DNA from: Eledone cirrhosa
Taxonomy: Eukaryota
Direction: 5' to 3'
Assembly: GCA_964016885.1 (NCBI GenBank)
Contig: OZ024743.1
Span: 46,810,001 to 46,874,000, forward strand
DNA length: 64,000 bases
In this document: positions 16,444 through 64,000 of the stretch, one piece after another
How positions within the stretch are numbered: position 1 is the stretch's first letter
How the letters are laid out: every line of letters starts with the position of its first letter
Made by a program: the position numbers and the translations under genes
Notes under the pieces: model-generated
Seen by the model: the letters and a program-made list of their open reading frames with translations, nothing else
The model's database searches: none
Told to the model about the DNA's origin: nothing

Positions 16444-16453
16444 AACGAGTAAG

Positions 16454-19568: not shown

Positions 19569-19605
<37 letters not shown>

Positions 19606-19656
19606 ATGCATATATATATATATATATTATAATGCATATATATATATATATATATA
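19326..19656. repeat. [TAATGCA(TA)n] array
   Basis: Seen directly. Confidence 0.88.
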
Positions 19657-20059: not shown

Positions 20060-20431
<372 letters not shown>

Positions 20432-20432
<1 letters not shown>

Positions 20433-21694
20433 TAAGTAGCAGCAAGTGCCCCAAAATACTAGCTCTTTCTATTGCGCAGAGGATTCTATAGAAATAGTGG
20501 ACAGCTTCCGTTACCTGGGTGACAAAATCAGCAGTGGGGGAGGGTGCTCTGAAAGTACAGTAGCTAGAGTGAGAACTGGATGGAAAAAGTTCAGAGAGCT
20601 TATACCACTATTAGCCGCTAAAGGGTTCTCCCTAAAAATGAAAGGCAGGTTGTATGATGCCTGCATACGAACAGCAATGTTGCATGGCAGTGAGACCTGG
20701 GCATTTTGTGCAGAGGATATACGCATGCAGCAGCTGTGCTGAAACAGCAAGCAAACAGCCACAGGAAACAAGTACCACCAATCTCTGGGAGGGCCCTGTA
20801 GAAACAGTAGACAGCTTCTGCTACCTAGGTGACCGAATTAGCAACGGAGGTGGGTGCTCAGAAAGTACAATAACTAGGGTAAGAACGGGATGGAAGAAGT
20901 TTAGGGAACTACTACCACTGCTAGCTGCAAAAGGCTTCTCCCTCAGAATGAAAGGCAGACTGTATGATGCGTGTATCCGAACAGCAATGTTGCATGGTAG
21001 TGAGACCTGGGCGCTGAAGGTGGAAGACTTACGTAGATTAGAGAGAAACGAAGCCTGCATGCTCCGATGGATGTGTAACAGTAATATACGTGAACGACAA
21101 AGCATAAATGATTGAAAGAGAGACTGAGCATAAGAGGAATCAAATGCTGTGTGCAGGAGAGGCGGTTGCGCTGGTATGGACATGTGATGCGTATGAAGGA
21201 TGACAGCTGCATAAAAAGGTGCAGAGCACTAGAAGTCGATAGAAACCGCGGAGTGGGGAGACCCAAGATGACCTGGGATGAGGTGATAAAAGCCGACCTT
21301 ACCCAATTACACCTCTCAAAGGCAATGACACACGACCGTGACTTCTGGCGTCACGCAGTAATACAGATTACCCAACCTCCCATGGGTACATGCTGAAGCA
21401 TATAAACAATATGCCCCCCTCCCCCCCCCACCGCAAGGTGGTCGTGGAGGTGCCACGGCAAAAAAGCACCCAGCCCACACTGTAAAGTGGACGTGTAGGC
21501 GCCACGAAAAAGCACCCAGCACTCACTGTAAATGAGGTTGGTGTTAGGAAGGGCATCCAGCTGTAGAAATCAAGCCAGATCAGTTCCTGTATGAGCAAGG
21601 CATGGTCAGCCGACCAGACACTGCACACAACAGGACAACCCGTCTAACCCATGCTAGCGTGGAAGAACGGACGTAAAACGGTGATGATGATGAT
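20432..21694 (+). mobile_element. Chimeric RTE: family A segment fused to family B 3' half
   Basis: A sequence to ...GAGGATATACGCA (about 20725), then B sequence TGCAGCAGCTGTGCTG... through the B 3'UTR and GAT tail. Confidence 0.9.
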
Positions 21695-21698
21695 ATAA

Positions 21699-21732
<34 letters not shown>

Positions 21733-21763
21733 GCATATATATATATATAATGCATATATATAT

Positions 21764-22251
21764 ATATCTATCTATCTATCTAAGGCAGGTAAAATTCCCG
21801 AGATCCATGGGCGCGTTCTCTCCAGCGGTCTCTGTCCCTCATTATCGCTGCCATGCTCTGGTTTCCCAACAGACCAGTGTCTGTCCTTAGGGCATCATCA
21901 TACGTTAACCTTGGTCTTCCTCTTCTAGTGTGTCCATGCAGGGGCTCCCAAAGGAGCACTGAGTGCAATGTCAACTCTGGATGTCGGTGAGCATGTGGAA
22001 GTCGGACCTTCGTAGAGACTTGAAGGTCTGCCTCTTCATTGCTGTAGTGGAGTCTGTGCTGCTGTATGGGTCTGAGACTTGGACACTGACTAAGAAACTC
22101 ACTCAGATGGTGGATGGGTGCTACACGAGAATGCTGAGGATGGCTCTGAACATTAATCAGTATACACTGAGAGATGAAAAACTCAGAGCTGTATGGGAGC
22201 ATACCAAAAGTCAGCTCAAAAGTGACACAGAGGAGACTGAGGTTAGCTGGA
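21764..22251 (-). mobile_element. Third RTE-like LINE 3' fragment with 5' inversion, (TAGA)n tail
   Basis: Minus strand: HAHRHPELTLHSVLLWEP..RGRPRLTY..MRDRDRW. Plus strand, about 21996-22251: VESVLLYGSETWTLT..RMLRMAL..RRLRLAG. Confidence 0.82.
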
Positions 22252-22419
22252 TATGGATATATATATAATGCATATATATAATGCATATATATAAATATAT
22301 AATGCATATATATATATATATATAGATATATATAATGCATATATATATATATATAATGCATATATATAAATATATAATGCATATATATAAATATATAATG
22401 CATATATATAAATATATAA

Positions 22420-29200: not shown

Positions 29201-30490
29201 AGACCGCTTCCACCGCCAATTGAAAGCCGCATTGCGCGCTTATCTGGATCAACAGCAATAGAGCGAGTATGTACCAATTGTCCTTCTTGGCTGTCGTGCA
29301 GCTATCAAGGAGGATCTAGGATACTCCCCAGCTGAACTGGTTTACGGAGTACCTATATCTTTGCCGGGTCAGATGTTGACCCCAATGGATTTACCTGAAA
29401 CAGATCCAGCTCTGCATGTGAACAGACTGCAATCTTATTTTGACAATCTTCCGCCTATGAACCCTCCGGCAACAGACAATAAAGTCTTCGGACCCACGTC
29501 TTTCTACGGAAGGACGCCGTGAGAGCTCCTCTCACGTCACCTTATACTGGTCCTTATCGTGTGCTTGCACGCACAGATAAACTGTTCACTCTGGACATTG
29601 GTGGTAAAAAAGAGACTGTATCTATCGATAGGGTGAAACGGGCCTTTACAGACACTCTCCACAAGAGCCCCTTATTCCCCCTACATATACTCTGCATCAG
29701 CCAACACACGCTACACATGCAACATTGCACACACCTTCTCCACCTACACCTACATATGTCACCACCACACATAATGGTCGCCAAGTACATTGGCCCAAGA
29801 AGCTTTGCAAGACTCTATATATATGAACTATGCTATATAGAGCAAGCTTTTTGAGTTCTTGTCCTCTCTTGTATTTATATTAAATGCATTAATTAATGTG
29901 AACTTTGGACTATTTCTGCTGTTCAGTATTTTTTTATGTTCCTCTTTTTCTCTGAAGCAAAACGCAGACATTCCTGTGAAATGAATATTTAGTTTTCTGT
30001 GAATTGATATTGTTTATTATATATTTACTGTTATATATTTTTTTTCTTTCTTGCAACTGCTACCCTTTTTTCTCTGTCGGCTTTCAGCCTAAGCAGAGGG
30101 TGATGTAGCAGTAATATATATCCTTTGTATTTTCCTTCGGCGGAAGAAAAATGTTACGGAAGTAAATTGGCTGAAGTGTGAGCCAATCAAAACCTTCGGC
30201 GTAGCGATACAAGTAACTGGACTACTTAGACAAGAGAACGGAAGTTAAGACAGAAGATCAGTCTCCAGAAAAATCTGCTATCATCAAAACGTTGATTCTT
30301 CGATACGCCATATCCTGTCGTATCTCACACATGGAAATACAGGCAAAATGAGTTTCACAGTGTGAAGCAAGAATAAATGAAGTACATATTTGTAATGGAG
30401 TTTGTCTATTTAATGCTTTCTGATCTAATGACTTACATTCTTCATTATAGTTTTTGAGTTTTAGGTTCACAAATAAAGACTGAAATTGCC
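26270..30490 (+). mobile_element. Degenerate Ty3/Gypsy element (CsRn1-like): gag C-term, PR, RT, RH, IN, PPT + probable 3' LTR
   Basis: CYYHSHFGAVARS(C)KQPC CHCC motif after a 1-nt correction; DTGA; [23 protein letters not shown]; VDAS; HPG..C..C, HIDLVGP, TDRGGQF; GPY. PPT then TGTAG at 30104. Right end uncertain. Confidence 0.88.
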
Positions 30491-40630: not shown

Positions 40631-42456
40631 GTGATAAAAATAAAAAGGGCTAAAAGTAAGTAACAAGGAGAGTTTTGTGTGGTTTAGTATTAAAAGGTAC
40701 AAACTAATGAAATGTGACTATTATATTTAGGAAAGCAATACAACTTACTCCCGGTTATAATATATTTTCAATAGCATTTGAGCAGAATGCTAAAGCTGTC
40801 CAGGGCTCTAAAACAAAGCAACATTATTTAACCATTCTGCTACTATATTTATTTTATGCAAGACACTGCCTGTTGATTTTTAAATATTTATGAAAATGAT
40901 TAGGAATTTGGAGGTTCTTACACAAAATTATGATGGAAGGTGTTTAGATATATAAACACTATAAAATGAAGTTTGCTTTCATAAAACCAGTATCAAAAGG
41001 GTTAAATATGTGTTGGAGTAGTCATTAATCATATGTAACTATATTTTAAAGTTCTTGCAAATATAAAAATTAAATTGTATTTCAGCTTAAAACATCCAAA
41101 ATGTTTCAATTAATTTCAATTGTAAAATGTTATATTCAGATGATTTTGTGACATGAAAACTTTTGAAGAGGTGTTTGAAATGTCCAGCAACAGATACTGC
41201 TAAACATTCTTAATGATATGTTTACAATCATGTCACACAAAAAATTCCAGTTCTTGATTCTACGTTGATTTAACCATTTTGTTATCATATTTTCAATGAA
41301 AAACACTACTAATAATTTCGAAATAATTTTGTAAATAATGAATCATTTGAAGGGATTTAGTAATATAATTAAATATTTTGAAAGTTAAAGTATGCTCCAA
41401 ACACAAAGACTCATCAAGCTTATCCTAGTTTCCTTTGCTCTACGCCAATTCATTGCATAACTAATCCCCAGCTGTTACCAGTACTCATTTCGTTTCAGCT
41501 GAGAAGACTGGAGCAACATGAAATGGTAATGTCTTAGTCAAGGACACACCCCACCATCCAAGCCATGAATCTAGGCTGTGCACTTTCACATTGTAATATA
41601 ACATCATTTTCTCTGCTAGAAAGAGTTAGTCAGGTTGCAACAGAGTCAGTAGCATATTGACCTTTCAGATTAACTGCATTTTATCGTGGCACCAACACGA
41701 TAAATACGTTTATCCTTAACATAAACAGTGTGACACAATATGTAATAAAGCTGGAATTTTAAATTACTATTAGTCCATCCAACTGGCTTCCACACAGTTT
41801 CTATCTTCCAAATTCCGCTCATAAGGCTTGGATCAACCTAAGGCTATGGTAAATATATTGCCCAAAATGTAATGCAATGGGATCAAACTTTTAGCCTTTA
41901 AAATATAGAATTGTGGGGAGTCTGGATTTCCTTGCCACCCCTCATTCACTGGACTAGCACCAAACAATCATCATCACATACATTATTATCATTATTCCTA
42001 AACATACGATCCTGGTTGAAGACATTTCAATAAAGACCTTGGGAAACTACCCACAATACTGATCAGCTACAAAATACTACAGCAAAAAATAAAATGAATG
42101 AAAAAAAAAAAATGAAAAAAAATAATGTTCTTATGTTTCAATTAAACATTTAATAATTTGGGGAATCCCAAAGAATAGAGCTCGAAATAAGAAAACGAAA
42201 ATATCTTGTCAGATTCAACAAATCCACTTGTGTATATTGACACAGGAGTTCCCTGATCTACTTGTGTGTGTGTGTATATATAGTTTTAAAAAAACACAAT
42301 AACGTTATTAGGTTCACGCTTGAAAGGAGAAAGTTGAACGTATCGGACGTTAGTACTTCATATCTGGTTAACCAATGTCTTGTCAGCAAACATGTATATG
42401 CGTGTGTGTCCTCGTTAACATTTACTGTTTATATGTTCCGTAACTTAGTGGTTCGA

Positions 42457-42497
<41 letters not shown>

Positions 42498-42904
42498 GAT
42501 AATATACGTACTAGGCTTCAAAAAATAAATACTGGGGTCGATATAATCGACTGAATGAATCTCTTCAAGGAGATACGCAAAATGGCCAGTCTAATGACTA
42601 AAACCAGTAACAGAAAGAAATATGAGAGGACCATGCGAAATGAAGCCGGTGAATGCGATGTGATATTTTCATTTTCTTGTTTCAAGATCTATTGTCATGG
42701 ATATCCATAAATCTTTGAAGAAATTAGTTTTATTTCTGATGGCAGAAGACGAAAGATTGAGGAGATGAAGTTTGAGCCAAAAACAGAATAACGTGAGAGA
42801 GAAAGCGTGTAAAATATGGACATTTGTCCGTGTGTCCACCACAGAAAATAGTCCTTTATCAATATAATTTCTACTCCTCAGTCTAAATATTTTAAACAAA
42901 AGAT

Positions 42905-43272
42905 GGTAATCCTTTGTTTTAAGATCACAAACAACTTCCAGGAATTTCTGTAAGTAAAATTACTTCTTTTTTTTTTCTAATTTAATAAAAAAAATAATTA
43001 TAATCTACACCTTCGAAAATGTGTCTCTGAAAAATATGCATTATTAAGAAAATTGTGATAGCAAAGTCAGGTGGACGAACTAAACTGTAGTTGCGCGCAC
43101 ACACACAGATACATGACAACATAACTACAGTTTAGTTCCCCCACCTGACTTTGTTTCCTCATAACTTTCTTAATGAAATTTTACAGCTTCATTTTCGAAG
43201 GTTTTTTAATTTTGGTTTTCACTCACTAAAATTACCGAAAGTTATCTATGATCTTTAAATAAAAAGGATTAC
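42905..43272. mobile_element. Palindromic MITE/foldback
   Basis: Inverted pairs CAAAGTCAGGTGG..GAACTAAACTGTAGTT / AACTACAGTTTAGTTC..CCACCTGACTTTG, CTTCGAAAATG/CATTTTCGAAG and GTAATCCTTT/AAAGGATTAC. Confidence 0.7.
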
Positions 43273-43745
43273 TCGGAAGTGATAGAAATTGAAATGTTTT
43301 GGCGTTAGAACCTTTTTGTTTCAAATTGAAAAAATATATCAGTGACTGCAGTTCTAATTAAGAATCGGAAAAAAAACGGATAGCCTGAGGGAGTGGGAGT
43401 AATGACATAAACACATATATGTTTAAATTTAAATAAATTAGATTCTTGCTTTAATAAAATGAAACAAACTTTACATGTTTAATTACCCAAAATTAATACT
43501 TAAATATTTTCATATAGTCTTAAAAAGGGTAAAGGGCAAAATATAACAGTTCAATTTTGGATTTTGTGTATTAACGATAATTAATTTAAAGTGGCTCCAG
43601 TTCAGAATTATAAGCGGCTATATGAATTTATTAAAGGATAACAGTTTACATCTCTCCGTCTACCAAATTCTGCTCACAAGGCATCGGTCAATCTGACAAG
43701 ACACCCAAAGTGCCGCGCAGTGATATACACACACACACACACACA

Positions 43746-43828
43746 CTTTTATTGGTTTCAGCCAGTAATATGTAGCTATAGTGGGGCATCGCCTGATAGG
43801 GATTTAGTCGATCATACCGAACACAGTA
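43746..43828 (-). mobile_element. SINE 3' tail
   Basis: Homologous to the plus-strand SINE tail at about 42528-42615 (TACTGGGGTCGATATAATCGACT...AAACCAGTAA). Confidence 0.6.
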
Positions 43829-43973
43829 GATATATATATATATATATACCAAACCCATTATATATATATATACCAAACCCAGTATATATATATATATACC
43901 AAACCCAGTATATATATATATATATACCAAACCCAGTATATATATATATATATATATAACTGATATAAAGTAA

Positions 43974-44785
43974 TCTATATATATAAAACTGAGGTTGTCT
44001 GTCTGTCTACTAAAACCTTCGGCACACATCTCCTCTTAAACCGTACGTTCAAATTTCGGTGAAATTGCTACACTTATAGATGAAGGTCCGGCGGAACCAT
44101 CGGTCAAATAAATTTTCAAATAAGTTCTTGTTTTTGATTATGTCATCTATCTATATGTGGTTGTCTGTCTGTCTATCGATTTTTGGCACACATCTCCTCT
44201 TAGAATCTCTGACGGAATTGCACCGAAATTGCTATACCTAGCGAAGACATCGGAAAAAAAATATTTCAAATTGACCAACCCTATGTGACGAAATCGAATC
44301 TAATGTATCGATTTTTGAGCGTAAGTGACGAGTTATTTCCCTTTGTTCTGTTTACATTGAGCGTCTTACGTTCTGTTTACATTTTCTGCGTGCAAAAATT
44401 AAAAAAATTACGCTGGCTTTCTCAGCGTTTAAAATGACATTAACACAATACACGAACAGTTGTCGAGCCAGCAAAATTTTGACCTGCAAAATTCATCAGT
44501 TCGAACACTAAGCTTCCGTTTTGCTTCATTTCCATTTAAAAGCCTTTTAAAACAATATTTTTACTTGAAAACAAGTCTATTTAAAGACTACGTAAAACAA
44601 GCAAATATTTCGTAAAAAAAAGCAAAAATTATATAAGTTTATTTAAAATATATGTATCTGTAAATTTCGTTAGGCGTGCAGACAGACAGTCGTGCAGACA
44701 GACTTCAAGCCAAAAAAGAAACTTAACATTGTAACTTTAACACAGCTACTGAGCGACCCCGAGCAACGCCGGGCTTTACTGCTAG
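43974..44785 (+). mobile_element. Non-autonomous Helitron
   Basis: A|TCTATATATATAAAA start, (GTCT)n, 3' hairpin CCCGAGCAACGCCGGG then CTAG|T; 5' segment repeated at about 44146-44200. Confidence 0.8.
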
Positions 44786-44848
44786 TACACAATATATTAA
44801 TAAATGGAAACTATATATATATATCTCGAACCCAGTATATATGTATAT

Positions 44849-44990
44849 ATAACAAAGGAATTGTGGTAAGGAACCAGATGGACCATAACGCACCAGAGTA
44901 CTCAATACATAGGGTAGTAGAGTGGGAAATAGGAAAAAAAATGACCCCGACGGCAGAGCTCAAGCCGTTTCGACGGCTATTTCTGGTCCA

Positions 44991-45024
<34 letters not shown>

Positions 45025-45044
45025 CGACGGCTATTTCTGGTCCA

Positions 45045-45048
<4 letters not shown>
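44849..45048 (-). mobile_element. Solo PLE pLTR 3' fragment (same family as 16441-19325)
   Basis: Reverse complement aligns to about 19180-19325, including the GAAACGGCTTGAGCTC..GCCGTCGGGGTC half-hammerhead. Confidence 0.8.
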
Positions 45049-45094
<46 letters not shown>

Positions 45095-45125
45095 TGGGTT
45101 TGGTATATATATATATAATGGGTTT

Positions 45126-45158
<33 letters not shown>

Positions 45159-45245
45159 TGGGTTTGGTATATATATATATATATATCTACTGTGTTCGGT
45201 ATGATCGACTAAATCCCTATCAGGCGATGCCCCACTATAGCTACA

Positions 45246-48200
45246 ATCAAACCTAGCATGCCATTTCCACTGCTGCTGCTACTACCTGCCTAACTAACTC
45301 TCTCCTCCTCTGGCGCATCCCAACACACACTGCCATTACCCCACCACCACTGTTCTTCTAGCCCTCAATTTTCCCACCGTTATGGATGGATGAGCTGGGA
45401 ATACACGAGCAACTCTGAATCAATAGATGAAATATGAATCTGCGAGCTACCAAGCACCCACGTGAAGCGCCAACCCAGAGACCCTCCCCTACGAGTGTCG
45501 ACAAATGCCCAAAACTCCGAGTTGGTACCATCAATGTAGGCTCAATGAAAGGAAGAGCAGGAGAAATCGTAGAAATGCTAGAGCGAAAGGAAGTTGATGT
45601 ATGCTGTGTGCAAGAGGCTAGATGGAGAGGAGGGTCTGCTAGAGTCCTTGTAGGAAAAAGCCAGTGCTACAAATTTTTCTGGGTGGGAAATGACGATGGG
45701 ATGGGTGGTGTAGGTATACTATTAGCTGACAAGTGGGTAGATAAAGTAATCTCAGTGTACAGGGTAAATGCAAGAATCATTAAACTCAGACTAGTCCTGA
45801 ATAAGACAATTACCACAATAATATCAGCTTACGCACCCCAATCGGGGCTGCCAGACGAACTTAAGGATAGGTTTTACGAGTCCCTAATACACACTACTGC
45901 TCTAACAGACGACAAGGACTTCCTAATCATTTCAGGAGATTTTAACGGACATGTAGGTAAACACTGCGACGGCTTCAATAGAGTACATGGAGGCCATGGA
46001 GTTGGCACAAGGAATGAGGAAGGATTCAGACTTCTAGAATTCTGCGACGCCAATGACATGTCGATATGTAACACAAACTTTAAAAAACCCGACAACCACC
46101 TGATCACCTATAGATCAGGGGAGCACTCTAGTCAGTTAGATTTTATCCTCATCAGAGGACGTGACAGATGGACGGTCGTAAACACAAAAGCCTTCCCTAG
46201 TGAGGAATGTACATCCCAACATAGCTTAGTTGTCAGCGACCTCACGGTCAGAACTAGACGAGCCCTGAAACAGAGGCCAACCTGGAGAAGAAAGATCTGG
46301 AAGCTGAAAGTCCCCTCAACCAGTAACTGATTTAAAGATATTTTACTCAACGCCTACGACAGTAAAGAAGAACAGATAGAGACATTTAACGTAGAAGAGA
46401 ACTGGGAGTTCCTAAAAAATAACTTACTAGAGGCGACGGATGAGGTTTGTGGCTGGAGTAAGACCTCAAGCAGGAGGAGAGTGACTTGGTGGTGGAACAA
46501 TAAGGTAGATGAAGCAGTCAAGGCCAAGAGACAGGCGTGGAAAGAATGGAAGAACGGGGGGAGCAGGGTACATTACATAGAGACCAAGAGGGAAGCTAGG
46601 CGACAAGTATACTTAGCTAGGAGGGAAGCAGAGGATAGAAAATTCAAGCATGTTTTACAACGTGAGGACCAGAAACAGGAGGTATTCAAGATTGCGAGGC
46701 AGTGTGTCAGAGATAGTTGTGATGTCATTGGAGAGAAGTGTATCCGGAATGATAAAGGTGAGCTTGCCCTCACAAGTGCTGAGAAGAAAGATGCATGGAA
46801 GAGTCATTATGATAGATTACTAAATGAGGAGAATGCATGGGAAGAAGAGACCCTACCCCACGTAGACCCTATAGAGGGACCAGCAGTACAAGTCAGCGGC
46901 AGCGTAGTAAGTAAGGCAATCAGAGATATGAAGATAGGGAAGGCAACCGGTCCATCGGGTATAGCTGCCGAGATGCTGAAGGCATCTGGGTCTGTAGGTC
47001 ACACTATAACCACACGTATCGTTAACCAGGTAATACTAGAGGGGGCCATACCAAAAGATTGGTGCAGTAGCATCATTGTCAACTGCTACAAAGGTAAAGG
47101 CGATGCACTAGATAGAGGAAACTATAGAGGTATAAAGTTGATGGACCAGGTCATGAAAGTAACAGAAAGAGTTATAGCACAGCTGATTAGGGACCGGGTG
47201 AATATAGACGAGATGCAATTTGGGTTTGTACCAGGGAAAGGCACCACTGATGCCCTCTTCCTTGTGAGGCAATTACAGGAAAAGTACCTAGCTAAAAGTA
47301 AGCCACTCTACTTGGCATTTGTCGACCTTGAGAAAGCCTTTGACAGAGTTCCACGTGCAGTAATCTGGTGGGCTCTTAGAAAACTAGGAGTAGATGAATG
47401 GCTTGTGAAAGCGGTACAAGCCATGTATAGGGGAGCAGTCAGCAAAGTTAGGATTGGCAATGAGTATAGCGAGGAATTTAGCGTACAGGTTGGGGTCCAC
47501 CAGGGCTCTGTTCTTAGCTCTCTCCTGTTCATCATAGTCCTGCAGGCAATAACGGAGGAGTTTAAGACCGGATGCCCATGGGAACTCCTGTATGCTGATG
47601 ACCTCGCACTCATAGCTGAATCTATGGTAGAACTAGAGAATAAATTCCAAACCTGGAAGCAGGGACTAGAGAGAAAGGGCCTCAAAGTCAACATGACAAA
47701 GACTAAGGTCCTTGTAAGTAGACGAGAAAACAGAACCCAGATCCCCTCAGGGAAATGGCCTTGCTCAGTATGTAGGAAAGGTGTAGGTAGGAACTCCATT
47801 CTCTGCCCCAAATGCAAACAATGGGTACACAAGAGATGTAGCGGGATCTCAGGAAGCTTAATTAAGAATGTAGGATTCACATGCAGCAGCTGTGCTGAAA
47901 CAGCAAGCAAACAGCCACAGGAAACAAGTACCACCAATCTCTGGGAGGGCCCTGTAGAAACAGTAGACAGCTTCTGCTACCTAGGTGACCGAATTAGCAA
48001 CGGAGGTGGGTGCTCAGAAAGTACAATAACTAGGGTAAGAACGGGATGGAAGAAGTTTAGGGAACTACTACCACTGCTAGCTGCAAAAGGCTTCTCCCTC
48101 AGAATGAAAGGCAGACTGTATGATGCGTGTATCCGAACAGCGATGTTGCATGGTAGTGAGACCTGGGCGCTGAAGGTGGAAGACTTACGTAGATTAGAGA

Positions 48201-48847
48201 GAAACGAAGCCTGCATGCTCCGATGGATGTGTAACAGTAATATACGTGAACGACAAAGCATAAAGGAATTGAGAGAGAGACTGAGCATAAGAGGAATCAA
48301 ATGTGATGCGTATGAAGGATGACAGCTGCATAAAAAGGTGCAGAGCACTAGAAGTTGATGGAAACGCATAAAAAGGTGCAGAGCACTAGAAGTTGATGGA
48401 AACCGCGGAGTGGGGAGACCTAAGATGACTTGGGATGAGGTGATAAAAGCCGACCTTACCCAACTACACCTCTCAAAGTCAATGACACACGACTGTGACT
48501 TCTGGCGTCACGCAGTAATACAGGGTACCCGACCTCCCATGGGTACATGCTGAAGCATATAAACAATATGCCCCTCCCCCCCCCCCCCGCAAGGTGGCCG
48601 TGGAGGTGCCACGGCAAAAAAGCACCCAGCCCACACTGTAAAGTGGACGTGTAGGCGCCACGAAAAAGCACCCAGCACTCACTGTAAATGAGGTTGGTGT
48701 TAGGAAGGGCATCCAGCTGTAGAAATCAAGCCAGATCAGTTCCTGTATGAGCAAGGCATGGTCAGCCGACCAGACACTGCCCACAACAGGACAACTCGTC
48801 TAACCCATGCTAGCGTGGAAGAACGGACGTAAAACGGTGATGATGAT
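45246..48847 (+). mobile_element. RTE family B, full-length-like; one nonsense codon plus a 38-bp deletion/duplication
   Basis: ORFs 45434-46330 and 46481-48322 are in the same frame; APE, RT (YADD), PHD-like finger; 3' end GGACGTAAAACGGT(GAT)n. Confidence 0.95.
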
Positions 48848-48891
48848 ATATACCGAACCCAGCATACATATATATATATATATATATATAT

Positions 48892-48994
48892 AGTTTTAAT
48901 ATAGATGAGATTCATCTATATTAAAACTGTATTACTCTGCTATGTATTGAGTACCTTACTTACTGCGGTTACCTCCGATTCAACCCGGAATAAC
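48892..48994 (+). mobile_element. Mini PLE-like terminus with foldback
   Basis: AGTTTTAATATAGATGA-gat-TCATCTATATTAAAACT hairpin, then ACTCTGCTA..GTATTGAGTAC as in the PLE tail at 19250-19277. Confidence 0.55.
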
Positions 48995-49112
48995 ATATAT
49001 ATATATATATACCGAACCCGGCATATATATATATATACCGAACCCGGCATATATATATACATACCGAACCCAGCATATATATATATATATATATACATAC
49101 ATACCGAACCCA

Positions 49113-49151
<39 letters not shown>

Positions 49152-49288
49152 GAACCCAGCATATATATATATATATACATACCGAACCCAGCATAAATAT
49201 ATATACCGAACCCAGCATAATATATATATACCAAACTCAGCACATATATATATACCGAACTCAGCACACATATATATACCGAACTCAG

Positions 49289-49336
<48 letters not shown>

Positions 49337-49390
49337 ACTCAGCATATATATATATATATATATATATATACCGAACTCAGCATATATATA

Positions 49391-49706
49391 TCATCATCAT
49401 CATCACTTTACATCCGCTTTTCCCTGCTTGCAAGGGTGGGACGAGAACTGATTCTGGCTTGATTTCTACAGCTGGATGCCCTTCCTAACACCAACCTCAT
49501 TTACAGTGAGTGCTGGGTGCTTTTTTGCCGTGGCACCTCCACGACCACTCCAGTCCCTATCATCTCATTTCTACAGCTGAGTAAACTGGAGCAATGTGAA
49601 ATAAAGTGTCTTGCTCAAGGAAACAACACATCACCCGGTCTGAGAATTGAACTCACAACCTTTCGATTGCAAGTTCAATGCTCTAACCACTAAGCCATGT
49701 GCCTCC
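49391..49706 (-). mobile_element. Full-length tRNA/CORE SINE with RTE-B tail
   Basis: A box TGGCTTAGTGG, B box GTTCAATTC, CORE-like CCTTGAGCAAGACACTT..CAGTTTACTCAGCTGTAGAAATG, GAT tail. Confidence 0.9.
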
Positions 49707-49880
49707 ATATATATATATATACCGAACTCAGCATATATATATATATATATATATACCGAACTCAGCATATATATATATATATACCGAACTCAGCATATAT
49801 ATATATATATATACCAAACTCAGCATATATATATATATATACCGAACTCAGCATATATATATATATATATACCGAACTCA

Positions 49881-49913
<33 letters not shown>

Positions 49914-49916
<3 letters not shown>

Positions 49917-50240
49917 TCATCATCATCATCATCATTTCATTTTACGTCTGCTTTTCCCTGCTTGCAAGGGTGGGACGGGAACTGATTCTGGCTTGATTTC
50001 TACAGCTGGATGCCCTTCCTAACACCAACCTCATTTACAGTGAGTGCTGGGTGCTTTATTGCCGTGGCACCTCCACGACCACTCCAGTCCCTATCATCTC
50101 ATTTCTACAGCTGAGTAAACTGGAGCAATGTGAAATAAAGTGTCTTGCTCAAGGAAACAACACATCACCCGGTCTGAGAATTGAACTCACAACCTTTCGA
50201 TTGCAAGTCCAATGCTCTAACCACTAAGCCATGTGCCTCC
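49914..50240 (-). mobile_element. Second near-identical SINE copy
   Basis: As the previous copy, with a few substitutions and a different tail. Confidence 0.9.
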
Positions 50241-50441
50241 ATATATATAAATACCGAACTCAGCATATATATATATATATATACCGAACTCAGCATATAT
50301 ATATATATATATATACCGAACTCAGCATATATATATATATATATATACCAAACTCAGCATATATATATATATATATACCGAACTCAGCATATATATATAT
50401 ATATATATACCGAACTCAGCATATATATATTACCGAACTCA

Positions 50442-50478
<37 letters not shown>

Positions 50479-50489
50479 GAACTCAGCAT

Positions 50490-50951
50490 AAGACAATGTC
50501 ACTGGACCGAGACCTTTGGCGGTACTCAGTAACAGAGAAGACCCGCCTTACCTAAATATATAGTAAAACCTACTCCAGCCAGTAGGCATCTCTAACAAAA
50601 TACACCCCGTCCCACCACCACCACCCCCACCCGATCCACACCACCCCGTTCTATGTAAAGTTATGTTGGTGCCGCGCCATCGAGGCCGAAACAAATGAGA
50701 TCGTGTAGGTGTCACGACAAAAAAACACACAGTCCACGCTGTAATGTGGCCGTGTAGGCAACACGGTAAAAACCTCCCAGACCCACACTGTAAATGTGGT
50801 TGGTGTTAGGAAGGGCATCCAACTGTAGAAAACCTGCCAGACAGTCCTATGCGAGCAAGACAATCACTCTTGCCTCAAGTGGGACTACCCCCGTCCAAAC
50901 CCATGCAAGCATGGAACACGGACGTTAAACGTTGATGATGATGATGATGAT
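50490..50951 (+). mobile_element. RTE family A short 3' fragment with 20-bp TSD
   Basis: TATATACCGAACTCAGCATA at 50471-50490 and 50951-50970. Confidence 0.92.
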
Positions 50952-50969
50952 ATATACCGAACTCAGCAT

Positions 50970-51030
50970 ATCATCATCATCATCATCATCAACGTTTAAC
51001 GTCCGTGTTCCACGCTTGCATGGGTTTGGA
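50970..51030 (-). mobile_element. RTE family A 3' stub
   Basis: (CAT)n plus the last ~40 nt of the 3'UTR. Confidence 0.85.
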
Positions 51031-51084
51031 ATAAATGCTCTGAGATAGCGATATATATGTGAATATAGACATAGAATATTCGAA

Positions 51085-51345
51085 AATATATATATATATA
51101 TACATATATATATACATATATATATACATATATATATATACATATATATATACACATATATATATACATATATATACATATATATATATATATACATATA
51201 TATATACATATATACATATATATATACATATATACATATATATATACATATATACATATATACATATATATATACATATATACATATATATACATATATA
51301 TATATATACATATATATACATATATATATATATACATATTTATAC

Positions 51346-51378
<33 letters not shown>

Positions 51379-51685
51379 CATACATATATACATATATATA
51401 TATACATATATATATATATACATATATATACATATATATATATACATATATATACATATATATATATATACATATATATACATATACATACATATACATA
51501 TATATACATATATATACATATACATACATATACATATATATACATATATATACATATATATACATATATATACATATATATACATATATATACATATATA
51601 TACATATATATATATACATATATATACATATATATATATACATATATATATATACATATATATACATATATATACATATATATAC

Positions 51686-51716
<31 letters not shown>

Positions 51717-51773
51717 CATATATATATATATACATATATATATATACATATATACATATATATATATATCTAC

Positions 51774-51804
<31 letters not shown>

Positions 51805-52000
51805 CATATATACATATATATATATACATATATATATACATGTATACATATATATATACATATATATACATATATATATATACATATATATACATATATA
51901 TATATATCCATATATATACATATATATATATACATATATATATATACATATATATACATATATATATATACATATATACATATATATATATACATATATA
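51085..52000. repeat. (TA)nCA compound microsatellite
   Basis: Seen directly. Confidence 0.95.
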
Positions 52001-53168
52001 ATTAACCTGGCTAAGACCAAAGTACTAGTTTGTAGGAAAGAAAACAAGGCGGCGGTCCCTTCTGGGAAATGGTCGTGCTCGGTGTGTAGGAAAGGCGTAG
52101 GTAGAAACTCCATTTTATGTCCTAAATGCAAAGTATGGGTGCATAAAAGATGTAGTGGGATCACAGGTAAGCTAACTAAGAACATAGATTTTACATGTGG
52201 CCGGTGTTCTGGTGCAATAAGTAGCAGCAAGTGCCCACTAAATACTAGCTCTTTCAATTGCGCAGAGGGTTCTATAGAAATAGTGGACAGCTTCCGTTAC
52301 CTGGGCGATAAAATCAGCAGTGGGGGAGGGTGCTCTGAAAGTACTGTAGCTAGAGTCAGAACTGGTTGGAAAAAGTTCAGAGAGCTTATACCACTATTAG
52401 CTGCTAAAGGGTTCTCCCTAAAAATGAAAGGCAGGTTGTACGATGCCTGCATACGAACAGCAATGTTGCATGGCAGTGAGACCTGGGCATTGTGTGCAGA
52501 GGATATACGCAGACTAGAGAGGAACGAAGCTTGCATGCTCCGCTGGATGTGCAATAGTAATATACGTGAACGGCAAAGCATAAACGAACTAAGGAAAAAA
52601 TTAGAAATAAGAGGGATCAGATGTTGTTTACTCGAGAGAAGGCTACGTTGGTATGGACACGTGATGCGCATGAAAGTCGATAGCTGTATAACAAAGTGCA
52701 GGGCAATAAAGATAGACGGTAGCCACGGAATAGGCAGACCTAGAAAAACCTGGGATGAGCTGATAAACTCCGACCTCACACACTTACACCTCTCCAAGAC
52801 AATGTCACTGGACCGAGACCTTTGGCGGTACTCAGTAACAGAGAAGACCCGCCTTACCTAAATATATAGTAAAACCTACACCAGCCAGTAGGCATCTCTA
52901 ACAAAATACACCCCGTCCCACCACCACCACCACCCCCACCCCATCCACACCACCCCGTTCCATGTAAAGTTATGTTGGTGCCGCGCCATCGAGGCCGAAC
53001 CAAATGAGATCGTGTAGGCGTCACGACAAAAAAACACACAGTCCACGCTGTAATGTGGCCGTGTAGGCAACACGGTAAAAACCTCCCAGACCCACACTGT
53101 AAATGTGGTTGGTGTTAGGAAGGGCATCCAACTGTAGAAAACCTGCCAGACAGTCCTATGCGAGCAAG
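52000..53168 (+). mobile_element. RTE family A, 5'-truncated, 3'UTR interrupted at 53168
   Basis: INLAKTKV...TRLT (end of ORF 51059-52861); 3'UTR stops at GCGAGCAAG. Confidence 0.93.
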
Positions 53169-53242
53169 GAATATATATATATACGCTTGCATATATATAT
53201 GCAAGCGTGGAACACGGACGTTAAACGTTGATGATGATGATG

Positions 53243-53246
53243 ATAT

Positions 53247-53315
<69 letters not shown>

Positions 53316-53502
53316 TACATATATACATATATATATACATACATACATATATACATATATATATATATACATACATACATATATACATATATATATACAT
53401 ATATACATATATATATACATATATATATATATACATACATATATATATACATATATATATATACATATATATATACATATATATATATACATATATATAT
53501 AC

Positions 53503-53553
<51 letters not shown>

Positions 53554-53608
53554 CATATATATATACATATATATATATATATACATATATATATACATAT
53601 ATATATAC

Positions 53609-53639
<31 letters not shown>

Positions 53640-53660
53640 CATATATATATACATATATAC

Positions 53661-53695
<35 letters not shown>

Positions 53696-53755
53696 CATAC
53701 ATATATACATACATATATATATATATATATACATACATATATATATATATATATA

Positions 53756-53789
<34 letters not shown>

Positions 53790-53821
53790 TACATACATAC
53801 ATATATACATATATATATACA

Positions 53822-53875
<54 letters not shown>

Positions 53876-53888
53876 CATATATATATAC

Positions 53889-53921
<33 letters not shown>

Positions 53922-53942
53922 CATACATACATACATATATAC

Positions 53943-53973
<31 letters not shown>

Positions 53974-54121
53974 CATATATATACATATATATATACATAT
54001 ATATACATATATATATATACATATATATATACATATATATATACATATATATATATACATATATATATACATATATACATATATATATACATATATATAT
54101 ATACATATATATATACATATA
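53243..54121. repeat. (TA)nCA compound microsatellite
   Basis: Seen directly. Confidence 0.95.
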
Positions 54122-55828
54122 TCATCATCATCATCATCACCGTTTTACGTCCGTTCTTCCACGCTAGCATGGGTTAGACGGGTTGTCCTGTTGTGGGCAG
54201 TGTCTGGTCGGCTGACCATGCCTTGCTCATACAGGAACTGATCTGGCTTGATTTCTACAGCTGGATGCCCTTCCTAACACCAACCTCATTTACAGTGAGT
54301 GCTGGGTGCTTTTTCGTGGCGCCTACACGTCCACTTTACAGTGTGGGCTGGGTGCTTTTTTGCCGTGGCACCTCCACGACCACCTTGCGGTGGGGGGGGG
54401 GGGGGCATATTGTTTATATGCTTCAGCATGTACCCATGGGAGGTCGGGTACCCTGTATTACTGCGTGACGCCAGAAGTCACGGTCGTGTGTCATTGACTT
54501 TGAGAGGTGTAGTTGGGTAAGGTCGGCTTTTATCACCTCATCCCAAGTCATCTTGGGTCTCCCCACTCCGCGGTTTCCATCAACTTCTAGTGCTCTGCAC
54601 CTTTTTATGCAGCTGTCATCCTTCATACGCATCACATGTCCATACCAGCGTAACCGCCTCTCCTGCACGCAGCATTTGATTCCTCTTATGCTCAGTCTCT
54701 CTCTCAATTCATTTATGCTTTGTCGTTCACGTATATTACTGTTACACATCCATCGGAGCATGCAGGCTTCGTTTCTCTCTAATCTACGTAAGTCTTCCAC
54801 CTTCAGCGCCCAGGTCTCACTACCATGCAACATCGCTGTTCGGATACACGCATCATACAGTCTGCCTTTCATTCTGAGGGAGAAGCCTTTTGCAGCTAGC
54901 AGTGGTAGTAGTTCCCTAAACTTCTTCCATCCCGTTCTTACCCTAGTTATTGTACTTTCTGAGCACCCACCTCCGTTGCTAATTCGGTCACCTAGGTAGC
55001 AGAAGCTGTCTACTGTTTCTACAGGGCCCTCCCAGAGATTGGTGGTACTTGTTTCCTGTGGCTGTTTGCTTGCTGTTTCAGCACAGCTGCTGCATGTGAA
55101 TCCTACATTCTTAATTAAGCTTCCTGAGATCCCGCTACATCTCTTGTGTACCCATTGTTTGCATTTGGGGCAAAGAATGGAGTTCCTACCTACACCTTTC
55201 CTACATACTGAGCAAGGCCATTTCCCTGAGGGGATCTGGGTTCTGTTTTCTCGTCTACTTATAAGGACCTTAGTCTTTGTCATGTTGACTTTGAGGCCCT
55301 TTCTCTCTAGTCCCTGCTTCCAGGTTTGGAATTTATTCTCTAGTTCTACCATAGATTCAGCTATGAGTGCGAGGTCATCAGCATACAGGAGTTCCCATGG
55401 GCATCCGGTCTTAAACTCCTCCGTTATTGCCTGCAGGACTATGATGAACAGGAGAGGGCTAAGAACAGAGCCCTGGTGGACCCCAACCTGTACGCTAAAT
55501 TCCTCGCTATACTCATTGCCAATCCTAACTTTGCTGACTGCTCCCCTATACATGGCTTGTACCGCTTTCACAAGCCATTCATCTACTCCTAGTTTTCTAA
55601 GAGCCCACCAGATTACTGCACGTGGAACTCTGTCAAAGGCTTTCTCAAGGTCGACAAATGCCAAGTAGAGTGGCTTACTTTTAGCTAGGTACTTTTCCTG
55701 TAATTGCCTCACAAGGAAGAGCGCATCAGTGGTGCCTTTCCCTGGAACAAACCCAAATTGCATCTCGTCTATATTCACCCGGTCCCTAATCAGCTGTGCT
55801 ATAACTCTTTCTGTTACTTTCATGACCT
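54122..55828 (-). mobile_element. RTE family B, 5'-truncated, intact RT ORF
   Basis: ORF 54423-55823; (CAT)n tail. Confidence 0.95.
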
Positions 55829-55829
55829 A

Positions 55830-56572
55830 ATAATTAGTAATAAAATGTATCATACCTAAACTGTTCCTAAATTCCTCGACTACGTAGTTTCGTGGCATAA
55901 ACAAAAACAATATATCAAAGATATAGAGTCCTTGCGAGGTCTGCCGACTTATCAAGAGGATACCTCATTTTACTAGTCTCAAGAACGCGTCTACACGACG
56001 TGAGAAAGAATCCCAAAAGGCGGAGGGGGAGATAGTCACGCGATATAACGGTCGAGAAACAGAGCTAAGCCTCTTATAACCACGAAGAAAATACCACGGA
56101 GGCGGAGGGGGTATTCATATCGAGGCCGTAGAAGAGGTAGTGAAGAAGGCGAGAAGTGTGAGTAATGGAAGCTTTCCAGTTGTCCCCACACTTCAAAGAT
56201 TGCTCGACCAGAGGGAGTTATTAATATATTTAGAAACACACAGATACATGCGGACACACACATATATACATGAATGCATCCGCACCCAACTGTGAGTTAA
56301 GGGTGCCAACTTCACCGATGTTGCTCAATGAATGACTGGGACAGACCAATTCAGTTTGAACCAGACTGAACCAGTATCAGAGTTAAAAATACATTATGAA
56401 GAGAGAAGAAACATTTAGATATAATTAGTAATCTCGCAAGGACTCTATATCTTTGATATATTGTTTTTGTTTATGCCACGAAACTACGTAGTCGAGGAAT
56501 TTAGGAACAGTTTAGGTATGATACATTTTATTACTAATTATATCTAAATGTTTCTTCTCTCTTCATAATGTA
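55830..56572 (-). mobile_element. Non-coding hammerhead-bearing (retrozyme/PLE-like) element, 591-nt unit plus inverted arm
   Basis: ATAATTAGTAAT at 55830 and 56421. 56433-56572 is the reverse complement of 55830-55938 continued by 56390-56420. Confidence 0.7.
55873..55960 (-). ncRNA. Type I hammerhead ribozyme, U3-A8 variant
   Basis: TCCTC-TTGATAA-GTCGGCA...TGCCAC-GAAA-CTACGTAG-TC|GAGGA. Confidence 0.7.
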
Positions 56573-56778
56573 TATATATACATATATATATACATATATA
56601 TATACATATATATATACATATATACATATATATATATATATACATACATATATATATACATATATATATATACATATATATATACATACATATATATATA
56701 CATATATATATATACATATATACATATATATATATGTATATATATATATATGTATATATATATATGTATATAAATATG

Positions 56779-56810
<32 letters not shown>

Positions 56811-56887
56811 CATATATATATATATATGTATATATATATGTATATATATATGTATATATATATATATATATACATATGTATATATGT

Positions 56888-56981
56888 ATCACTCTTGCCT
56901 CAAGTGGGACTACCCCCGTCCAAACCCATGCAAGCGTGGAACACGGACGTTAAACGTTGATGATGATGATGATGATGATGA

Positions 56982-56982
<1 letters not shown>
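56888..56982 (+). mobile_element. RTE family A 3' end (continuation of 52000-53168)
   Basis: ATCACTCTTGCCTCAAG... to (GAT)n. Confidence 0.85.
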
Positions 56983-58798
<1,816 letters not shown>

Positions 58799-58851
58799 AA
58801 TAAAATAAAGTTAAATAAAAGTCAAATGATTAAAATTTAGCTTCGTTTATT

Positions 58852-58906
58852 ACTGCTATATATATTTCAGTGACAGCCATCTTTGGCTGTGACCTCTTCA
58901 GGCAGT
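58852..58906 (-). ncRNA. Minimal type I hammerhead ribozyme
   Basis: Inverted copy of 59119-59173. Confidence 0.8.
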
Positions 58907-59118
58907 TTGAATAAGTATGGTATAGACAAGTACATATGTTGTTTAGGTGTATGATATTGTCAATACTCTGATATGCCCAGTTCCTTGCTGGGTTGTTAAT
59001 TCACTGGGAACAGTTCCCCAGTGAATTAACAACCCAGCAAGGAACTGGACATATCAGAGTATTGACAATATCATACACCTAAACAACATATGTACTTGTC
59101 TATACCATACTTATTCAA

Positions 59119-59173
59119 ACTGCCTGAAGAGGTCACAGCCAAAGATGGCTGTCACTGAAATATATATAGCAGT
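59119..59173 (+). ncRNA. Minimal type I hammerhead ribozyme
   Basis: ACTGC-CTGAAGA-GGTCACAGCCA-aaga-TGGCTGTCACT-GAAA-TATATATA|GCAGT. Confidence 0.82.
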
Positions 59174-59322
59174 AATAAACGAAGCTAAATTTTAATCATT
59201 TGACTTTTATTTAACTTTATTTTACACTACTCCGGAGTAACCAAACCAACCTGCGCACTTGGTCGAGTGCTCCAGCCTGCATACTGAGGTGTTGGTATAC
59301 AACCAACATAAACTCTAAATCT

Positions 59323-59403
59323 ATATATATATACATATACATATATATATACATATATATACATATATATATATACATATATATATATACGTATATATAC
59401 ATA

Positions 59404-59435
<32 letters not shown>

Positions 59436-59886
59436 CATATACATATATATATATACATATATATACATATATATATATACATATACATATACATATATAT
59501 ATATACATATATATACATATATATATATACATATATATACATATATATATATACATATATATACATATATATATATACATATATATACATATATATATAT
59601 ACATATATATACATATATATATATACATATATATATATACGTATATATACATATATATACATATATATATATACATATATATATATACATATACATATAT
59701 ATATATACATATATATATATATACATATATATACATATACATATATATACATATATATATATACATATATATACATATATATATATACATATATATACAT
59801 ATATATATATACATATATATACATATATATATATACATATATATACATATATATATATACATATATATACATACATATATATATAT
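59323..59886. repeat. (TA)nCA microsatellite
   Basis: Seen directly. Confidence 0.95.
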
Positions 59887-61425
59887 CATCATCATCATCA
59901 TCATCAACGTTTAACGTCCGTGTTCCACGCTTGCATGGGTTTGGACGGGGGTAGTCCCACTTGAGGCAAGAGTGATTGTCTTGCTCGCATAGGACTGTCT
60001 GGCAGGTTTTCTACAGTTGGATGCCCTTCCTAACACCAACCACATTTACAGTGTGGGTCTGGGAGGTTTTTACCGTGTTGCCTACACGGCCACATTACAG
60101 CGTGGACTGTGTGTTTTTTTGTCGTGACACCTACACGATCTCATTTGTTTCGGCCTGGATGGCGCGGCACCAACATAACTTTACATAGAACGGGGTGGTG
60201 TGGATGGGGTGGGGGTGGCGGCGGGAGGGGTGTATTTTGTTAGAGATGCCTACTGGCAAGGCGGGTCTTCTCTGTTACTGAGTACCGCCAAAGGTCACGG
60301 TCCAGTGACATTGTCTTGGAGAGGTGTAAGTGTGTGAGGTCGGAGTTTATCAGCTCATCCCATGTTTTTCTAGGTCTGCCTATTCCGTGGCTACCGTCTA
60401 TCTTTATTGCCCTGCACTTTGTAATACAGCTATCGACTTTCATGCGCATCACGTGTCCATACCAACGCAGCCTTCTCTCGAGTAAACAACATCTGATCCC
60501 TCTTATCTCTAATTTTTTCCTTAGTTCGTTTATGCTTTGCCGTTCACGTATATTACTGTTACACATCCAGCGGAGCATGCAAGCTTCGTTCCTCTCTAGT
60601 CTGCGTATATCCTCTGCACACAATGCCCAGGTCTCACTACCATGCAACATTGCTGTTCGTATGCAGGCATCGTACAACCTGCCTTTCATTTTTAGGGAGA
60701 ACCCTTTAGCAGCTAATAGTGGTATAAGCTCTCTGAACTTTTTCCAACCAGTTCTGACTCTAGCTACAGTACTTTCAGAGCACCCTCCCCCACTGCTGAT
60801 TTTATCGCCCAGGTAACGGAAGCTGTCCACTATTTCTATAAAACCCTCTGCGCAATTGAAAGAGCTAGTATTTTGTGGGCACTTGCTGCTACTTATTGCA
60901 CCAGAACACCGGCCACATGTAAAGTCTATGTTCTTAGTTAGCTTACCTGTGATCCCACTACATCTTTTATGCACCCATACTTTGCATTTAGGACATAAGA
61001 TGGAGTTTCTACCTACGCCTTTCCTACATACCGAGCACGACCATTTCCCAGAAGGGACCGCCGCCTTGTTTTCTTTCCTACAAACTAGAACTTTGGTCTT
61101 AGCCAGGTTAATTTTAAGTCCTTTTGACTCTAGGCCGTGCTTCCATGTTTGGAATTTCTTCTCTAGCTCGGCCATTGATTCCGCTATGAGTGTCAGGTCG
61201 TCTGCGTATAGGAGTTCCCATGGGCAGCCTGTCTTGAACTCCTCTGTTATAGCCTGAAGGGCAACAATAAATAGTAGGGGGCTGAGAACAGAGCCCTGAT
61301 GGACGCCAACTTTTACGCTAAACTCTTCACTATATTCGTTGTTAATTCTAACCTTGCTGACTGTTTCTTTATACATGGCTTGTATAGCCCTCACAAGCCA
61401 TTCGTCAACGCCTAGTTTTCTAAGA
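59886..61425 (-). mobile_element. RTE family A, 5'-truncated, 28-bp deletion variant
   Basis: LRKLGVDEW...RLASRHL; (CAT)n tail. Confidence 0.95.

Positions 61426-64000
<2,575 letters not shown>

Follow-up and report, generated by a model that had tools for sequence, protein, structure and literature searches.

The array of 12-bp units at 43817-50970 of the window (the whole 64,000-nt stretch of Eledone cirrhosa analysed here, C4:46810001-46874000) is probably a single-locus minisatellite that derives from a transposable element (TE), grew by misalignment of TA tracts and was later filled by TA-seeking elements. In the window we located 34 copies of the unit, all in + orientation and separated by TA tracts of 7-42 nt plus inserts, and 86 further units lie on the minus strand at about C4:46553163-46556107, 300 kb from the nest, so that window and far array together hold 120 head-to-tail units with a median period of 30 bp. 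A first-pass annotation of this DNA had called the motif private and had proposed a genome search for the unit plus TA. Across the 3.0-Gb genome, two such patterns returned 38 and 46 matches, all 84 of them in the window nest or the minus-strand far array and none at unlinked loci, with 0 matches for the reversed-pattern controls; the motif is accordingly private to one locus, a part of which, the far array, lies outside the window. With 10-100-bp head-to-tail units at one locus, and with a unit homologous to part of a dispersed repeat, the array has the marks of a TE-derived minisatellite. The nest is composed as follows.

43748-43829: left piece of an old SINE-like dispersed repeat (profile positions 13-101), with the motif inside at 43815-43829
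43814-43834, + strand: edge unit CCGAACACAGTA, the "ancestor" of the first-pass annotation, with a likely derived A at 43823
43849-43958, + strand: four units, CCAAACCCATTA and then three CCAAACCCAGTA, with TA tracts of 14-22 nt
43974-44786, + strand: young non-coding Helitron-like element with TC...CTAG ends, between A and T
44825-44851, + strand: unit TCGAACCCAG followed by TATATAT-G, the signature that also opens the far array
44852-44992: very high-copy repeat fragment, likely Penelope-like by a presumed label, 86% to window 19190-19322
44968-45076, + strand: second nascent capture, a tandem duplication with an exact 54-bp period
45093-45245, - strand: inverted copy of the left flank, the edge unit and three units, joined to the 5' end of LINE A
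45246-48847, + strand: RTE-type LINE A, truncated in its 5' UTR, with a (GAT)n tail; Pfam endonuclease, RT and PHD, ORF broken
48848-49391, + strand: 13 units, CCGAACCCAGCA/CCGAACCCGGCA and then CC(G/A)AACTCAGCA
48893-48994: short hairpin-headed repeat fragment (z -8.4)
49392-49914, - strand: tRNA-headed SINE with an RTE-type 3' end (49392-49706), plus six units
49915-50490, - strand: second SINE copy (49915-50240), plus eight units
50490-50950, + strand: 5'-truncated RTE-type LINE B between two units, 99.3-99.5% to window copies
50951-50970, + strand: last window unit
50971-51030, - strand: 60-bp 3' end of LINE B, its tail abutting the last unit
51026-51085, + strand: piece of a dispersed 310-bp satellite (30-mer with 19,324 matches at no more than 2 mismatches)
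51086-64000: TA zone interrupted by C, free of units, in which more LINEs and other inserts lie; continues past the window

Small corrections aside, the places and variants of the units had been annotated correctly: CCGAACACAGTA stands at 43817, the unit (T)CGAACCCAGTA at 44826 and the CCGAACCCAGCA/CCGAACCCGGCA units at 48853-49218. Four units are indeed present at 43849-43940, the first of them reading CCAAACCCATTA instead of the sequence given, and among the late units (49255-50970) the reported CCGAACTCAGCA is found in 16 of 20, the others being three CCAAACTCAGCA and one TCGAACTCAGCA. Missed had been the inverted copy, the 54-bp duplication, the pair of SINEs with the same fourth-unit variant and the 86 far units. 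The growth history is read from one assembly, a read overlay of 43000-45600 having left repeats out and given no piece spanning the nest, and some single unit variants may be sequencing errors; one 714-bp contig of the overlay is identical to the unique left flank, and overlay runs with small shares were set aside.

Source of the unit and the far array

The motif belongs to an old dispersed repeat, which we take to be a SINE. Positions 43748-43832 match 16 other loci at 74-84% identity, and the family majority at the motif is TATCGACCCCAGTAC (18 family copies). In a profile built from 13 copies the motif falls at positions ~82-99 of ~186, in the middle of the repeat, and so lies inside it and not, as first described, at the edge of an old SINE tail. 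The broader proposal, that flanking DNA beside a TA tract became the repeat unit, was borne out, the motif being a piece of the SINE-like repeat. ARAGORN found no tRNA in 42000-52000.

The edge copy had also been regarded as a visible ancestor, but it carries a derived base. At 43823 it has A, where the family has C in 8, T in 7 and A in 3 of 18 copies, an unsplit local paralog has C at the equivalent position, and the A is absent from all other 119 units. On this comparison the edge copy is likely a mutated end unit and CCGAACCCAGTA the root of the array.

The left half of the old repeat precedes the window array, and its right half follows the far array. The latter has a 200-N gap 50 bp from its start, and at its end comes the right part that is missing beside the window array, matching positions 108-144 of the profile (4.0 bits, a score that 0 of 100 shuffles attained). 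The unsplit paralog, ~1 kb beyond the far array, matches the left flank of the window array at 177 of 234 positions and the right flank of the far array at 100 of 122, scores that were reached by 0 of 3000 random genomic windows for either flank. No right half of the old repeat was found in the scanned end of the window contig (best score 42.5 versus 121). Moreover, the signature TCGAACCCAG-TATATAT-G occurs both in the 44825 unit and where the far array begins. Because the paralog matches both flanks and each flank supplies one half of the old repeat, the window array and the far array read as having once been one locus.

Growth of the array

The unsplit paralog and the repeat family suggest that a TA tract first arose inside the old repeat just after CCGAACCCAG, and the ATA before the motif could then have paired with this tract, by replication slippage or break repair, to yield unit-TA-unit. 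From there on, and in keeping with the pattern of the array, any two tracts could misalign, by which units would have been copied or lost singly or several at a time and, likely on one occasion, as a 520-bp block, new variants spreading as local runs nested inside older runs. The growing TA field would have received at least eight element types, a pattern that is visible at the locus although the enzyme is presumed; one RTE insertion would have been completed by fold-back copying of the nearby left flank, and the array would continue 300 kb away across scaffold gaps. As a likely route, a break or stalled end in TA would re-anneal to a different tract, giving fold-back where this happens on the same strand and duplication where it happens in register; slippage and nick-induced repair would give similar products. 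Duplication between short direct repeats is a model of minisatellite birth summarised in PMC3389668 (Ahmed and Liang 2012), whose account covers the Haber-Louis and Taylor-Breden models. For human cells PMC13645644 describes breaks at TA repeats and their repair through microhomology, for yeast PMC11724301 describes fold-back insertions, and for R2 PMC11371274 describes snap-back synthesis on nearby DNA with snap-back 5' junctions. These human, yeast and R2 repair routes may by extension apply to the nest.

Variant order records growth in the form of local runs, neighbouring window units differing by 0.58 bases compared with 1.45 in shuffles (p = 0.0002). The first-pass annotation had gone further and read the order like a ticker tape, with an ordered mutation gradient from the edge copy. 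That units were added at one end from the edge copy at 43814, position standing for age, is very unlikely, even though variants occur in runs. Within the window a gradient appears only from the presumed root CCGAACCCAGTA (rho 0.61), whereas from the edge unit rho is -0.03, and in the joined array the distance from CCGAACCCAGTA gives -0.03 and that from the edge unit a weak 0.25, units being not independent and the p-values of such gradients not strict. Against a one-way tape stand also the block duplication described below, a CpG G-to-A change that recurs on different unit backgrounds, and the ancestor-like units found at either end: once the two arrays are joined, CCAAACCCAGTA is present at both ends and the last unit equals the root CCGAACCCAGTA. 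Further in, TCGAACCCAG-TATATAT-G brackets an inner block, inside which lie the CAGCA variants and the unit-free C-interrupted zone. Growth looks nested, in local bursts within older runs, and not one-way; matching older variants lie on both flanks if the two parts are joined as we infer.

Neighbouring periods of the far array are equal in 17 of 82 cases, versus 7% in shuffles (p = 0.0002), and units were therefore copied together with their TA tracts; in the window part the autocorrelation of periods is not significant (p = 0.06 and 0.14). Flank duplication was not specific to TA in our sample, occurring at 63 of 1273 TA tract ends, 5 of 152 CA and 4 of 43 GA tract ends, and the sample thus does not single out self-complementarity as the driver of unit gain.

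Three structures in the window bear on how segments were copied. The inverted copy at 45093-45245 is identical to the left flank in its non-TA part (59/59) and meets the RTE 5' end via a 2-nt microhomology. Where the present left edge passes directly from the edge unit to CCAAACCCATTA, the inverted copy has one unit more; since it is longer by this unit without an insert, a unit was lost or gained without insertion. We rejected the inverted copy as an RTE 5' UTR, as 27 of 29 other LINE A copies carry a different common upstream sequence and the other two start in TA. An adjacent inverted copy of the flank was seen in none of these 29 copies, 4 of which have other inverted repeats within 1.5 kb. 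At 44968-45076, secondly, 24 bp from the end of the high-copy fragment plus TA were doubled once with no insert between, a duplication present in 1 of 16 related copies. Thirdly, the SINEs at 49392 and 49915 are 98% identical to each other versus 96% for the next best (40 scored of 2947 candidates). SINE and units are likely an approximately 520-bp block duplication, because the two SINEs are mutual best matches, have one private substitution in common and are each followed by CCAAACTCAGCA as the fourth unit. They differ at 6-7 places, four of them in the variable 3' end, and with differing 3' ends an independent insertion of sister copies is possible.

Artefacts of assembly, from fold-back reads or a second haplotype, might in principle mimic the inverted copy, the block duplication or the far array, the last of which begins close to a gap where the scaffold join is demonstrably incomplete. 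We give this next to no weight, given that the copies differ in unit order and bases, that the far array has its own variants and the sole right flank found genome-wide, and that a microhomology marks the junction of the inverted copy with a truncated RTE. As a second haplotype in particular the far array was rejected, no second right flank being found in the genome.

Inserted elements and an apparent target-site duplication

The element at 43974-44786, presumably Helitron-like, is 97% identical to the best 39 other copies of 1745 candidates, with private substitutions at 2 of 652 positions; its subterminal hairpin is no better than in shuffles (z -0.13). For the high-copy fragment, whose depth in the read overlay is very high, Pfam has no family for the frames at 17682-18865, and the Penelope label is therefore unconfirmed. 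LINE A carries 0.1-0.4% private substitutions. Its 5' end has 1341 candidate matches, and of 29 other copies 27 reach further 5'. An APE endonuclease and an RT in one frame, followed by a microsatellite tail, are found here as in RTE elements, with frames that are broken in these copies, and we assume LINE A and LINE B to be of the RTE clade. The hairpin-headed family has one copy in the far array, with different ends (94% to C4:46553643-46553731). By the Rfam tRNA model SINE copy 1 scores 27.7 bits, below the gathering score of 29, and SINE copy 2 scores 34.8 bits; otherwise Rfam returned many sub-threshold microRNA matches to TA and nothing else. The sequence at 51032-51085, considered as the flank of a rearrangement, turned out to be the satellite piece.

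Divergence from the family majority is 0.1-0.4% for the Helitron-like element and the LINEs and 1% for the SINEs, with no positional trend, and 2-4% for the two short fragments (from 4-8 rows). On the octopus scale of PMC13282606, if that scale applies, the inserts would be ~0.3-3 million years old. The suggested comparison of unit order with the ages of inserts yielded no ordering, and it has little power because all well-sampled inserts lie within 0.1-1% of their families.

A perfect 20-bp target-site duplication (TSD) had been reported around the RTE at 50490-50950 and taken as evidence for a copying mechanism. The 20-mers at 50471-50490 and 50951-50970 are identical, but the 20-mer is the array unit itself and occurs 12 times in the window, which is not what a TSD, single-copy at an empty site, would show. 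Duplications of similar length are likewise rare elsewhere in the families. For LINE B, 1 of 37 junction rows has at least 8 non-TA bases in matching flanks, namely the 50490 site (~9-10 of the 37 rows do not show the true 5' end); for the SINE this holds for 2 of 28 outside loci, one an 8-mer and one in low-complexity DNA; and for LINE A, 1 of 19 3'-end loci in unique DNA has a 45-bp flank duplication (L065), offset by 27 nt, 4 loci not showing the true 5' end. Furthermore, an RTE in an unrelated 26-bp minisatellite (L064) has the same apparent TSD, and 111 of 118 intervals between units contain no insert. From these insert-free intervals and the rarity of non-TA duplications it follows that insertions did not make most units. 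Growth in which every RTE or SINE insertion duplicates one unit is therefore largely refuted as the main source and extremely unlikely overall, notwithstanding the exact 20-21-bp match on either side of 50490-50950, the LINE A copy with the 45-bp duplication and the RTE-clade TSDs known in plants and vertebrates according to PMC6007223. Rather, the locus shows how insertion into an existing array creates an apparent TSD.

A related proposal dispenses with the insert: RTE endonuclease or cruciform cleavage would cut TA tracts, and repair would copy the adjacent unit without cDNA. It draws on the dense young RTE activity in the nest, on duplicated or inverted flank at RTE 5' junctions (44968-45245, L070 and L079), on orientation flips within arrays (L079, and a G-patch in the C zone) and on the precedent of R2 snap-back synthesis given in PMC11371274. 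We nevertheless hold it to be distinctly unlikely, as the 86 units of the far array are interrupted by a single internal insert and by no RTE, duplication of non-TA flank is rare at completed RTE insertions, and L170 and L189 are, in the stretches listed, plain minisatellites with short TA spacers and no nearby RTE. Misalignment of TA tracts is the reading that we prefer.

Scaffold context and comparable systems

A 323-kb block, itself free of gaps, stretches from the gap at 46556159 to that at 46879585 and carries KMT2C/MLL3 on the minus strand (PDB 2yuk, E 3e-11; exons). The FYRN, FYRC and SET exons of KMT2C lie on the unplaced 93-kb contig C1325, and the scaffold join at the left gap is therefore not a true adjacency. 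On the right, the end of the block falls within a young TA-inserting element of 3.6 kb, which the gap 5.6 kb past the window interrupts, so that the nest runs into the right gap; the last 3 kb before this gap, considered as ordinary DNA, are this young element. With the block reversed, the nest and the far array would come together as one locus spanning at least 29 kb. The right-hand contig also starts in TA, and a real inversion of ~416 kb therefore fits as well. We consider it somewhat probable that the arrays were split by mis-orientation of the contig, and a real inversion of ~416 kb has a little under an even chance. Among the matches listed, no KMT2C exon was recognised 126 kb to the left or 114 kb to the right of the block, and both of its orientations are therefore possible; a protein search with one exon gave no match. 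A scaffold error is hereby flagged: KMT2C has its 3' end on a contig that is unplaced, and the 323-kb contig bearing the rest is possibly reversed. On a wider and rather unlikely reading, the compound TA arrays of this genome would be thousands of self-recording break hotspots that capture adjacent flank, grow in nested inside-out bursts resembling centromeric layered expansion in miniature, pull in TA-seeking elements and flip blocks, and this nest would be the breakpoint of a real ~416-kb inversion carrying the whole of KMT2C/MLL3.

TE-derived minisatellites (PMC3389668) and clusters of TEs in TA (PMC5907723, PMC8449440) are known already, and the locus is largely a clear, well-preserved but ordinary case of repeat birth and growth. 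Like the minisatellites of PMC3389668, it has a unit from a SINE-like repeat, local duplication and a start between short direct repeats; here, in contrast, a TA tract of free length makes up at least half of the period, the unit measures just 12 bp and many elements use the array as a landing field. The SaTars of guayule and rice (PMC5907723) and the pineapple Ac-mMITEs (PMC8449440), as portrayed there, likewise have unrelated elements adjacent and TA-linked, often without a clear TSD, whereas at our locus retroelements dominate and the linker is a compound array whose private unit records its lineage. With the RTE-clade LINEs and SINEs of PMC6007223 and the octopus RTE-2_OV of PMC9115989, which we liken to our elements by the features those sources mention, they have in common a single endonuclease-RT frame, a repeat tail, a SINE with a common 3' end and a tail matching the first target bases, informative TSDs being rare in the present sample.

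The inverted copy resembles the fold-back insertions of PMC11724301 and the R2 snap-back junctions of PMC11371274 in that nearby flank is inverted via microhomology; compared with the lengths given in those accounts it measures ~150 bp, not mostly 5-34 bp, its source lies up to 1.4 kb away and its start is in a TA tract. New variants inside, with older ones pushed to both flanks, recall the layered expansion outlined for centromeric satellites (bioRxiv 10.1101/2021.07.12.452052). Here the array spans a few kb and not megabases, shows no sign of centromere function, and its symmetry rests on the cross-gap join. In the literature searched, which took in a minority of the subscription journals, we found no description of private-unit TA arrays in octopus.

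With its donor family and unsplit paralog, with both of its flanks and its runs of variants, and with an earlier edge frozen as an inverted copy, the locus is an unusually complete record of minisatellite birth. The window itself holds a second nest of the same architecture, the TAATGCA nest, as the first-pass annotation had recognised, with the ATGC spacer occurring 92 times at 7972-22419. In a survey of 58 evenly spaced 10-kb stretches of the genome, TA-spaced unit arrays were present in 6, or in 4 under a stricter rule, and if they are as common as this sample suggests, such arrays could serve to measure how units turn over and how TA breaks are repaired in a mollusc. Some of the surveyed arrays are plain minisatellites; L150 and L079 combine runs of variants with RTE inserts and with tracts that are long and variable.

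KMT2C/MLL3 and markers around the 323-kb block

Three coding features bear on the gap-free 323-kb block that carries the nest together with KMT2C/MLL3.

G000:C4:46806658-46812351 (window part 3-2351), minus strand: open frame of 1898 codons, rich in Q, E and S, followed closely by the first conserved KMT2C/MLL3 exons
G000:C1325:7046-23500 (L265-L267), plus strand: KMT2C PHD, FYRN, FYRC, SET and stop exons, on an unplaced contig
G000:C4:46512778-46527008 (L251-L252), plus strand: TCP-1/cpn60 chaperonin gene, 26 kb from the far array

The 1898-codon frame is likely a very large lineage-specific exon. The nest is located another 41 kb upstream, or within a first intron. The unplaced contig with the KMT2C 3' exons belongs beside the 323-kb block, at its left end. 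The chaperonin gene, which we take to be CCT5-like, can serve as a synteny marker for the question of whether this block is a mis-oriented contig or a real inversion.

RTE-type LINEs and their broken ends

In LINE A the 5' UTR is a tandem array of monomers, each about 380 bp long and varying in number (L066, L071, L081 and L083, upstream of the match). L079 and L080 break off at the same base as the LINE A copy in the window. Broken RTE ends recur between TA tracts, and strand flips occur within a CATT-spaced array (L079, L080, L070). Inside LINE A, a 38-bp duplication adjoins a deletion (window 48328-48403), and part of a LINE B 3' end is replaced by short TA tracts (window 53170-53200); both look like repair scars.

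Other repeats and inserts

Window 51026-51085, also L235: piece of a 310-bp satellite (19,324 matches)
L054:2551-5584 and L276-L280: young 3.6-kb non-coding element
Window 26753-29258, plus strand: Gypsy-like LTR retrotransposon pol fragments (RT, RNase H and integrase domains)
Window 58870-59165 and 55830-56570: two inserts with long inverted repeats in the C-interrupted TA zone

Arrays of the 310-bp satellite are dispersed and frequently flip head-to-head, and its minus strand contains the words CTGATGA and GAAAC, which we presume to resemble the hammerhead ribozyme motif. The 40 scored copies of the 3.6-kb element (of 1659 candidates) are near 100% identical; the element encloses a 221-bp inverted repeat and captured pieces of old repeats, and each of the five copies inspected has TA on one or both sides. 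The first of the two C-zone inserts forms a near-perfect hairpin around window 59015. In the TAATGCA nest (window 7972-22419), the ATGC spacer occurs 92 times, and a reversed patch lies near 20200-20400.
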